From a virus (lineage: Duplodnaviria; Heunggongvirae; Uroviricota; Caudoviricetes), in IMG/VR virus record IMGVR_UViG_2681813313_000001: DNA of 7,974 nt. One strand, written 5' to 3'. Made by a program: the position numbers and the translations under genes. Shown piece by piece: positions 2,069 to 5,838 of this stretch. Position 1 is the first letter of the stretch, and every line of letters starts with the position of its first letter. The notes under the pieces are model-generated. The model did no database searches. It had not been told where the DNA came from and was given only the letters and a program-made list of their open reading frames with translations.

Positions 2069-3424
<1,356 letters not shown>

Positions 3425-4652: not shown

Positions 4653-4779
4653 CAAACTGTAGGGGTTGTAATAGTTTATCCGATTTCTCGCTGTAGGGGT
4701 ACACGAGAACCACCGAGCCTGATGTGGTTAAAAGACAGGCACAATCTTTACTACCGCAATCCACTATTTAAGGTGATAT

Positions 4780-4866
4780 ATGGAAGAAGAATTTGAAGAG
4801 TTCGAAGAGCATCCTCAGGATGTGATGGAACAATACCAGGACTATCCGTATGACTACGACTATTGA
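4780..4866 (+). CDS. small acidic ORF (28 aa), lambda orf28-like
   Basis: ATG 4780, translation MEEEFEEFEEHPQDVMEQYQDYPYDYDY, stop TGA 4864-4866; preceded by aaggtga SD-like; overlaps ral start by 17 nt in another frame. Tiny ORF; coding status uncertain. Confidence 0.45.
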   Translation: MEEEFEEFEEHPQDVMEQYQDYPYDYDY

Positions 4867-5050
4867 TAAAAATCAATGGTGTGGACAATTCAAGCGATGC
4901 AATGGATGCAAGCTGCAATCTGAATGCATGGTTAAGCCTGAAGAAATGTTTCCTGTAATGGAAGATGGGAAATATGTCGATAAATGGGCAATACGAACGA
5001 CGGCAATGATTGCCAGAGAACTTGGTAAACAGAACAACAAAGCTGCCTGA
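4850..5050 (+). CDS. ral: restriction alleviation protein Ral
   Basis: 66-aa translation MTTTIDKNQWCGQFKRCNGCKLQSECMVKPEEMFPVMEDGKYVDKWAIRTTAMIARELGKQNNKAA recognised as lambda Ral; Cys-rich. Confidence 0.88.
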   Translation: MTTTIDKNQWCGQFKRCNGCKLQSECMVKPEEMFPVMEDGKYVDKWAIRTTAMIARELGKQNNKAA

Positions 5051-5186
5051 TAGTGGCCTTTATTTTTGGCATAAATAACAGAATAAACACTGCACTGTGT
5101 ATTCATTCCAACGAGTGAATACACGGAGCAATGTCGCTCGTAACTAAACAGGAGCCGACTTGTTCTGATTATTGGAAATCTTCTTT

Positions 5187-5213
5187 GCCCTCCAGTGTGA
5201 GGGCGATTTTTTA
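5187..5213 (+). terminator. predicted intrinsic terminator hairpin in the pL operon (between ral and ea10-like gene)
   Basis: gccctc-cagtgt-gagggc perfect 6-bp GC-rich stem (5187-5192 / 5199-5204) followed by gaTTTTTTa (T-run 5207-5212). Expected to be read through by N-modified polymerase. Confidence 0.6.
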
Positions 5214-5232
5214 TCTATGAGGATATGAATAG

Positions 5233-5601
5233 ATGTCAAACATCAAAAAATACATCATTGATTACGACTGGAAAGCATCAATAGAAATTGAAATCGACCA
5301 TGACGTAATGACAGAGGAAAAACTTCACCAGATTAATAATTTCTGGTCAGACTCTGAATACCGACTCAATAAACACGGCTCTGTATTAAATGCTGTATTA
5401 ATCATGCTGGCGCAACATGCTCTGCTTATAGCAATTTCAAGCGAATTAAATGCATATGGTGTTGTGTGTGAGTTCGACTGGAATGATGGAAATGGTCAGG
5501 AAGGATGGCCTCCAATGGATGGTAGCGAAGGAATAAGAATTACCGATATCGATACATCAGGAATATTTGATCCAGATGATATGACTATCAAAGCCGCCTG
5601 A
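5233..5601 (+). CDS. ea10: Ea10-like early protein (122 aa), function unknown
   Basis: 122-aa ORF at the position and with the length of lambda ea10 (between ral and cIII, 72 bp upstream of cIII); acidic, AT-rich codon usage. Identity to lambda Ea10 is inferred from synteny and size; the sequence itself was not recalled. Confidence 0.6.
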   Translation: MSNIKKYIIDYDWKASIEIEIDHDVMTEEKLHQINNFWSDSEYRLNKHGSVLNAVLIMLAQHALLIAISSELNAYGVVCEFDWNDGNGQEGWPPMDGSEGIRITDIDTSGIFDPDDMTIKAA

Positions 5602-5673
5602 GCGCGGCGTTACCGCATACCAATTACGCTTCACTCGAGGCGTTTTTCGTTATGTATAAATAAGGAGCACACC

Positions 5674-5838
5674 ATGCAATATGCCATTGCAGGGTGGCCT
5701 GTTGCTGGCTGCCCTTCCGAATCTTTACTTGAACGAATCACCCGTAAATTACGTGACGGATGGAAACGCCTTATCGACATACTTAATCAGCCAGGAGTCC
5801 CGAAAAATGGATCAAACAATTATGGCTATCCAGACTAA
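5674..5838 (+). CDS. cIII: CIII protein (FtsH/HflB inhibitor, stabilises CII)
   Basis: ATG 5674 after SD taaggag; translation [54 protein letters not shown] (54 aa) = lambda CIII. Below the size cutoff of the supplied ORF track. Confidence 0.92.
   Translation: MQYAIAGWPVAGCPSESLLERITRKLRDGWKRLIDILNQPGVPKNGSNNYGYPD

Follow-up and report, generated by a model that had tools for sequence, protein, structure and literature searches.

A conserved RNA hairpin lies between the ral and ea10 genes in a 7,974-nucleotide (nt) stretch of DNA from a Caudoviricetes virus (IMG/VR virus record IMGVR_UViG_2681813313_000001); the whole stretch is called the window here. The hairpin stands directly 5' of the small RNA (sRNA) PreS/LPR1, which is already published, and overlaps its nt +1. 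It is very probably a functional RNA structure tied to PreS. That it is an RNase III-type processing signal making the PreS 5' end is a narrower proposition, for which the chances appear about even. Such a processing structure was one of the roles offered in an earlier, sequence-only reading of this DNA, and it is the best supported of the roles that were offered.

The element occupies the following window positions:

5097..5124, perfect 9-base-pair (bp) inverted repeat; arms 5097-5105 (gtgtattca) and 5116-5124 (tgaatacac), 10-nt spacer ttccaacgag
5095..5126, + strand, RNA stem-loop; 14 contiguous pairs (5095-5108/5113-5126) and a CAAC tetraloop (5109-5112)
5087..5134, + strand, extended helix in the lambda context; 20 pairs over 22 positions

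The 9-bp repeat begins 46 nt past the ral stop codon and is followed directly 3' by GGAGCAATG with no T-run, all as the sequence-only reading had described it. The 9-bp stem and 10-nt loop of that description hold for the DNA repeat; as RNA, the stem is 14-20 bp long and carries a CAAC tetraloop. Two of the 14 stem pairs are U.G (U5096.G5125 and U5106.G5115), and a lower helix (5087-5093/5128-5134) extends the stem, with 1x1 mismatches at 5090/5131 and 5094/5127. The RNA stem is followed directly 3' by GGAGCAAUG and lacks the U-tract of an intrinsic terminator, so the earlier judgement that the repeat is unlikely to be a terminator stands.

Folding of the + strand RNA, which had been proposed as a check, yielded the hairpin at -24.9 kcal/mol (z = -6.2), and 0 of 200 shuffles were as stable. 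The hairpin was present in the minimum-free-energy fold of the whole ral-ea10 spacer and in those of five other contexts. As DNA, it folded at -12.8 kcal/mol (z = -4.1). The chance occurrence of such repeats was estimated from dinucleotide shuffles of the window. Each shuffled window held on average 0.29 perfect 9-bp repeats with a loop of 3-12 nt (at least one in 22% of shuffles), so that the 9-bp repeat has no significance by itself. RNA stems of 14 pairs were present in 5.7% of shuffles, and in the real window such a stem occurred only here and only on the + strand. What makes the hairpin significant is the comparison with related phages.

PreS and its parts were placed in the window as follows:

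5126..5213, + strand, PreS/LPR1 sRNA; 88 nt, GAGCAATGTCGC...GCGATTTTTTA, 100% identical to lambda
5161..5178, + strand, PreS seed region; the 18 nt deleted in the published lpr1-delta-seed mutant (primers P970/P971)
5185..5212, + strand, tL2a intrinsic terminator; 8-bp GC-rich stem (5185-5206 in the terminator scan) and T-run, forming the PreS 3' end

PreS is an Hfq-dependent lambda sRNA that lies between ea10 and ral and has the tL2a terminator at its 3' end (Silverman et al., bioRxiv 10.1101/2024.10.31.621285). It is seen as a band of ~88 nt and a stronger processed band of ~68 nt, is made in the lytic cycle only, from 10 min post induction, and is absent in lysogens; it activates host dnaN and is reported to raise host DnaN and to favour lytic growth (bioRxiv 10.1101/2024.10.31.621285). 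Silverman et al. used cloning and T7 primers that start GAGCAATGTCGC, at window position 5126; the homology arm for the full deletion ends ...GAATACACG / ...GAGTGAATACACG, at 5125; and the reverse primer ends at 5213 (bioRxiv 10.1101/2024.10.31.621285). PreS was taken to be 5126-5213 because these published primers set those boundaries.

Nucleotide 1 of PreS (G5126) is the 3' partner of C5095, in the bottom pair of the 14-bp stem. The sequence-only reading had noted a separate GC-rich terminator further on, which is indeed present at 5185-5206 with a T-run, and had missed that the stretch between the hairpin and this terminator is an sRNA whose nt 1 lies in the last stem pair. A terminator scan flagged tL2a (5185-5206) and a second site at 5626-5643 and left the 5097-5124 hairpin unflagged. 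No sigma-70-like promoter match was found on the + strand across 4700-5700, including near 5126. With no + strand promoter match nearby and PreS silent in lysogens, the simplest origin of its 5' end is processing of the pL transcript.

Two IMG/VR scans anchored on the 5' core of PreS gave 259 loci with that core. In 258 of these, a hairpin ended 0-2 nt before GAGC, and its stem was found in five unrelated versions:

Type A (lambda), 5' arm CTGTGTATTCATTC, 3' arm GAGTGAATACACG, ~150 loci
Type B (P22), 5' arm CTATAGCAGATT, 3' arm AGTCTGCTATGT, ~40 loci
Type C (ES18), 5' arm TTAATGCGGATT, 3' arm ATTCCGCATTGC, ~27 loci
Type D, 5' arm CTAATGACCATT, 3' arm AGTGGTCATTGT, ~27 loci
Type E, 5' arm CTTATCGACTTT, 3' arm GAGTCGATAGT, ~3 loci

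The 29 distinct hairpin versions were aligned with MAFFT, with gaps in the loop only. Standard pairs filled 94.4% of the cells of the common structure, compared with 69.5 +/- 1.5 in shuffles (0 of 500 as high), and at most 49% of cells were paired in a control with the partner slid. Changes on both sides were found in nine of 16 pairs, and the covariation score was 0.579 versus 0.145 (0 of 500 shuffles as high). Type B contained an internal clean A:U to U:A swap (loci L217, L228 and L233). Point variants were mostly in the loop (CAAC, CAAT, CAGT, CAGC, CGGT and others) or were one-sided with pairing kept. Two independent variants each turned the mismatch 5094/5127 and the wobble 5096.5125 into Watson-Crick pairs, L058 by changes in the 5' arm (A5094T and T5096C) and L150 by changes in the 3' arm (G5125A and A5127T), which is the signature of either quasi-palindrome template-switch mutation or selection for a perfect helix.

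The sequence-only reading had counted a lack of conservation beyond chance among the results that would speak against it; conservation and covariation were instead strong. Its alternative of a protein-binding palindrome was not supported. Five unrelated stems keep pairing in the same register without conserving a half-site sequence, which points to a nucleic-acid secondary structure rather than a sequence-specific operator.

The boundaries of homology among phage genomes fell at the edges of the hairpin. In BLAST comparisons, Shiga toxin (Stx) phages of the 933W type shared homology with lambda from window position ~5092, with an upstream gene other than ral; in HK629 and ev099 the spacer homology began at ~5081, and in APC_JM3.2 and mEp043 it began at exactly 5126. 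Where homology began at 5126, a different hairpin type filled the same place. On the other side, the spacer homology often stopped at 5212-5214, the end of the tL2a T-run. Diverged PreS homologues (~80-85% identical) were found in P22, ST-29, ES18 and SEN22, with a second or third hairpin. Altogether, the hairpin-PreS module occurred in at least eight upstream contexts, with the conserved part starting only ~11 nt upstream of the hairpin. The register of the hairpin was fixed to PreS (0-2 nt) and not to the upstream stop codon, which lay at 46 nt in lambda and ~8 nt in P22-like phages.

Hairpins of types A and B without an adjacent PreS were not found in IMG/VR, and an IMG/VR search for further cassette types or PreS-less hairpins returned only point variants of type A. 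The hairpin and PreS module is widespread: 2239 of 5426 complete E. coli genomes carried it, with as many as 6 copies and never with an annotation, and it was also seen in Stx-converting phages and in P22-like and ES18-like Salmonella phages. A scan of genome contigs with the seed gave mostly low-coverage lambda contamination and four chance matches, and L150 was its sole addition.

Exact lambda PreS was also seen in short ~1x contigs from assemblies of Pseudoxanthomonas, Shewanella, Bradyrhizobium, Arthrobacter and other unrelated bacteria (among them L127, L129, L131, L133, L137 and L146); these most likely represent lambda DNA contamination and not real prophages. A half-hairpin match (H142/L279), consisting of the 5' arm and loop only (window 5087-5117), was found in the chromosome of an enterotoxigenic E. 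coli (ETEC; NZ_LR882997.1), with an IS3-family (ISEc52) transposase pseudogene ~70 nt downstream of the end of the match. This half-hairpin was set aside as an IS3-family insertion and is uninformative.

Across the five types, two islands were constant, one at the base and one at the apex of the stem; the eight pairs between them, and the loop, were replaced. In window coordinates the islands are:

5092..5095, + strand, conserved 5' base GCAC; in all five types, pairing with PreS +1 to +4
5105..5107, + strand, conserved apical 5' AUU; forms A:U, U.G and U:A with AGU
5114..5116, + strand, conserved apical 3' AGU; partners of 5105-5107

At the base, GCAC (5092-5095) and PreS GAGC (5126-5129) form G:C, C:G, AxA and C:G, with a U.G just above. 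The AxA is present in all types, and types B-E have an extra pyrimidine-pyrimidine mismatch (YxY) at the base. In the contexts of types B and D, a conserved upstream AGCGA pairs with UCGCU of PreS, giving a rod of ~two turns. At the apex, U:A was kept in 29 of 29 distinct sequences and U.G in 26 of 29 (U5107:A5114 and U5106.G5115 in the window). The wobbles are conserved at two positions with the U always on the 5' arm; read from the other strand they would become A.C mismatches, which identifies the pL-sense RNA as the functional molecule. Both these wobbles and the confinement of the 14-pair run to the + strand support this strand assignment, for which folding energy was uninformative.

The minimal RNase III substrate has an 11-bp helix between the cut and the tetraloop, and in the distal box by the loop position 1 is U:A and position 2 is U.G, the latter being stringently required (Pertzev and Nicholson, PMC1540722). 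Positions 1-4 of the proximal box prefer G:C; A:U or U:A; A:U; and A:U or U:A, and G:C or C:G at positions 2 and 4 is inhibitory (PMC1540722). Internal loops can limit RNase III to one strand, leaving a protective 3' hairpin (PMC1540722). The two cuts are staggered, and the two positions that separate them are usually paired in vivo, including a G:C (PMC6212723).

The helix of the window is long enough for RNase III, with 14 contiguous pairs and 20 of 22 positions paired, and the upper stem above the annotated PreS end measured 11-12 bp in all five types. The apical U:A and U.G have the order and orientation of the distal box and lie 10-11 bp above the base. In types B-E this box is directly under the loop, 11 bp above the base, while type A has one extra C:G pair between the box and the loop. 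The proximal box of types B-E has A:U or U:A at position 2, mostly A:U at position 3, U.G at position 4 and no G:C at positions 2-4; the predicted 3'-arm cut in these types falls one nt inside the annotated PreS start. Type A can be read in two registers. With the cut level set 11 bp beneath the CAAC tetraloop, the predicted cuts are 5097|5098 and 5125|5126, the latter being the exact PreS 5' end; with U:A/U.G as the distal box, they are 5096|5097 and 5126|5127. The positions between the predicted cuts are U5096.G5125 and G5097:C5124 in the former register and C5095:G5126 and U5096.G5125 in the latter, a geometry compatible with the in vivo pairing rule. The mismatches flanking the predicted site could confine RNase III to one cut, with a 3' hairpin left behind, by analogy with known substrates. 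Overall, the hairpin matches RNase III well in geometry and distal box, while the proximal box of lambda itself gives a mixed picture.

Several points weigh against cleavage by RNase III or soften the evidence for it. In type A, the register that gives G5126 has C:G/U:A as its distal box, with U:A at proximal positions 2 and 4 and G:C at position 3; the other register places G:C at proximal positions 2 and 4, which are antideterminants of binding and catalysis in the minimal substrate. No type has G:C at proximal-box position 1, type C replaces the apical U.G with UxU, and the upper stem of types B-E, at only 11 bp, is at the minimum. Folding energy does not separate the strands (-24.9 kcal/mol for the + strand versus -25.0 kcal/mol for the - strand). 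The 5' end of PreS set by primers is accurate perhaps only to a few nt, and the text and supplements of the PreS paper address neither the hairpin nor 5'-end biogenesis and hold no RNase data. L058 and L150 could each have arisen by one-step quasi-palindrome template switching and not by selection. The five cassettes amount to about six independent events, not 29; even so, the cassette sequences appear hard to explain without selection for pairing.

The main rival reading assigns the cut to another enzyme. Most enterobacterial Hfq sRNAs that are excised from longer transcripts, those of E. coli included, are products of RNase E, and it is possible, though we would not favor it, that RNase E (or RNase G) cuts a single-stranded stretch just 3' of the hairpin and so makes the PreS 5' end. 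The hairpin would then be not the substrate but a boundary element that blocks 3'-to-5' exonucleases, protects the ral mRNA and prevents mispairing of the PreS 5' end with upstream sequence. The ~68-nt form of PreS begins in an A/U-rich loop (~5145), which is typical of RNase E; a possible RNase E site, AAU at 5130-5132, is only a few nt away from the annotated end; G:C pairs of the kind that inhibit RNase III in vitro are found in the proximal box of type A; and stable 3' hairpins are known to protect mRNAs. However, an exonuclease block leaves unexplained both the invariant apical U:A/U.G amid variable stems and loops and the GCAC/GAGC pairing that buries PreS +1 to +4 in a helix. The hairpin register follows PreS and not the upstream stop codon, and the sequence at 5124-5128 (CG|GAG) misfits the RN|WUU preference of RNase E.

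The remaining explanations do without processing of the transcript at the hairpin. It is improbable that the palindrome acts in DNA, as a protein-binding site, a cruciform or a recombination joint at a module boundary of the lambdoid mosaic. Mosaic breakpoints do cluster at the hairpin edges (~5092 and 5126), the hairpin folds as DNA too, the two strands are equally stable when folded as RNA, and L058 and L150 resemble template switching, a DNA process. Against this, five unrelated arm sequences exclude one sequence-specific binding protein, the conserved U.G at two positions would correspond to T.G in DNA, with A.C on the opposite strand, the 14 contiguous pairs are on the + strand only, and the element was never found without PreS. 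Still more improbable is a primary transcript, with PreS starting at G5126 from a promoter inside the hairpin or immediately upstream of it, or with the hairpin as the 5' domain of a longer precursor of PreS that has a promoter of its own. G is a common start nucleotide, and no report of the 5'-phosphorylation state of PreS was found in the PreS paper. Yet the promoter scan was empty, the -10 and -35 elements would sit in arms that differ wholly among the five types, the conserved module begins only ~11 nt upstream of the hairpin in its various contexts, and PreS appears within 10 min of induction, like a pL product. A chance palindrome or weak terminator without function is hardly credible: the expected frequency of a 9-bp repeat in shuffles would allow it, but the covariation across the five cassettes, the folding z score and the presence of a hairpin in nearly every PreS locus do not, and a weak terminator would also lack its U-tract.

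If RNase III is the enzyme, the hairpin would work most like the early R1.1-type signals of T7 and the lambda N leader, cIII and sib sites. As with R1.1-type signals, the hairpin lies in a polycistronic phage early transcript. It shares with R1.1/uR1.1 an ~11-bp upper stem under a tetraloop and a U:A/U.G distal box by the loop, and with R1.1 the mismatches at the level of cleavage above a lower helix (PMC1540722). The cut in R1.1 separates functional RNAs and can leave a 3' hairpin upstream, and the same is proposed here. Unlike uR1.1, the lambda hairpin holds in its proximal box G:C pairs of the kind that are inhibitory there, and unlike R1.1 its downstream product is an Hfq sRNA and not an mRNA.

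Lambda itself has RNase III sites in the N leader, in the 5' region of cIII and at sib downstream of int, and host RNase III tunes expression at these stem-loops; at sib, a cut downstream of the gene exposes its 3' end (retroregulation). The present hairpin is in the same phage and, for most of these sites, on the same pL transcript, and a double cut in it could likewise expose the 3' end of ral. It differs in lying elsewhere (lambda 34003-34050) and in that its proposed main product is a trans-acting sRNA. As far as the literature could be searched, the hairpin was not found among mapped lambda RNase III sites.

Among sRNAs, DicF of the lambdoid prophage Qin is the closest precedent. Faubladier et al. 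(1990) reported that both RNase III and RNase E take part in excising it from the transcript of the dicB operon, and RNase III reportedly forms the 3' end and RNase E the 5' end. Both DicF and PreS would be operon-internal prophage Hfq sRNAs released from a long transcript by endonucleases including RNase III; they have no sequence relation, and the 3' end of PreS is an intrinsic terminator. CpxQ, SroC and similar sRNAs, which RNase E processes from 3' UTRs or from inside operons, also share the terminator of a long transcript and gain their 5' ends by endonucleolytic cleavage, and the ~68-nt form of PreS probably arises in their manner, by RNase E-type cleavage. The CpxQ and SroC sites differ from the hairpin in being single-stranded and A/U-rich, without a conserved covarying hairpin abutting nt +1.

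Two pairings of the PreS seed region were seen in the folds. In the minimum-free-energy fold of the whole ral-ea10 spacer, 5074-5086 (AAUAACAGAAUAA), just upstream of the hairpin, pairs with the seed region at 5160-5173 (UUGUUCUGAUUAUU) over 13 bp with one bulge. Speculatively, this would mask the seed in the unprocessed pL transcript. The masking is not conserved, as T5076C is common and other upstream contexts keep GAAUAA only. In the fold of the 933W context, the PreS 5' end GGAGCAA (5126-5131) pairs with UUGUUCU at the start of the seed (5160-5166), and this helix abuts the hairpin, on which it could stack coaxially. Trimming to the ~68-nt form would remove the 5126-5131/5160-5166 pairing and free the seed.

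Under processing by RNase III, RNA polymerase from pL would transcribe N, ral, the hairpin, PreS and tL2a in turn. The hairpin would fold into 14 bp plus the lower helix in lambda, and into an 11-12 bp upper stem on the GCAC/GAGC base in its relatives. RNase III would bind the roughly two-turn helix with the apical U:A/U.G as distal box and cut the 3' arm at the base of the upper stem (5125|5126 or 5126|5127), the staggered partner cut at 5097|5098 or 5096|5097 being optional. This would release a 5'-monophosphate PreS of 88 nt ending at tL2a, later trimmed to ~68 nt, and the same cut would fix the 3' end of the upstream ral message. A cut in the 3' arm only would leave a protective 3' hairpin on the ral message, and a double cut would remove the hairpin.

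The window from 4800 to 5300 was 99.4% identical to lambda J02459, and the ral-ea10 spacer was 100% identical to those of phages ev207 and PhiR63_2. The + strand of the window corresponds to the leftward pL strand, window position x being lambda 39137 - x, so that the hairpin at 5087-5134 corresponds to lambda 34003-34050. The gene order was N, sieB (opposite strand), ral, spacer, ea10, cIII, kil, gam, bet and exo, and the genes flanking the spacer are:

4850..5050, + strand, ral; open reading frame (ORF) of 66 codons, the upstream gene on the pL transcript
5233..5601, + strand, ea10; the downstream gene

None of the lambda-type records compared carried an annotation at the hairpin site. An Rfam scan of 4700-5700 (E <= 10) found no family over the hairpin or PreS, and its sole real match was Lambda_thermo (cIII) at 5661-5700. 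An antisense ORF at 4873-5124 (83 amino acids, with a GTG start within the 3' arm) was rejected because most relatives have the upstream sequence replaced and the hairpin kept. A weak terminator-like site, upstream of tL2a and separate from it, overlaps the ral stop codon; it has a 5-bp stem GCUGC/GUGGC (5042-5057) followed by CUUUAUUUUU (5058-5067). The only other perfect inverted repeat of at least 9 bp in the window was a 10-bp repeat at 2425-2450 (ttcagcttgg/ccaagctgaa), within an ORF at 2391-3023. The N-terminus of this ORF is that of what we take to be the phage 434 cI repressor, and the window therefore appears to carry a 434-type immunity region on a lambda backbone.

A separate 5-bp hairpin, UCU(A)U / A(U)AGA, was found at 5214-5233 around the ea10 Shine-Dalgarno sequence (GAGGA), ending at the A of the ATG. 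Within it, the window and lambda differ at just two positions, which are paired with each other: 5217 is A (G in lambda) and 5230 is T (C in lambda). Across 59 loci this pair was G:C in 34, A:U in 17, G.U in five and AxC in three. This covariation suggests a translation-control stem for ea10.

No description was found of the relation between the hairpin and PreS, of the covariation across five cassettes or of the distal-box match; the older S1-mapping literature on pL was outside the search, and prior mapping is possible there. As it stands, the hairpin offers a concrete and conserved candidate for the signal that generates the PreS 5' end. Should RNase III prove to be the enzyme, the best-studied phage would gain a new target site for it, the control of phage replication would be linked to the RNase III activity of the host, and the site would provide a natural case in which the distal box stays constant while the rest of the stem is swapped. 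More tentatively, and with the odds against it, the lambdoid phages may possess a modular sRNA release cassette that has an interchangeable stem in at least five sequence versions, a fixed GCAC/GAGC base and a fixed distal-box cap and that travels with PreS by mosaic recombination. A single RNase III event would then free and 5'-monophosphorylate PreS, set the 3' end and stability of the upstream gene's message and, in lambda, part the seed from its 5074-5086 mask. Were such a cassette real, the activity of the sRNA would be tied to the RNase III status of the host.

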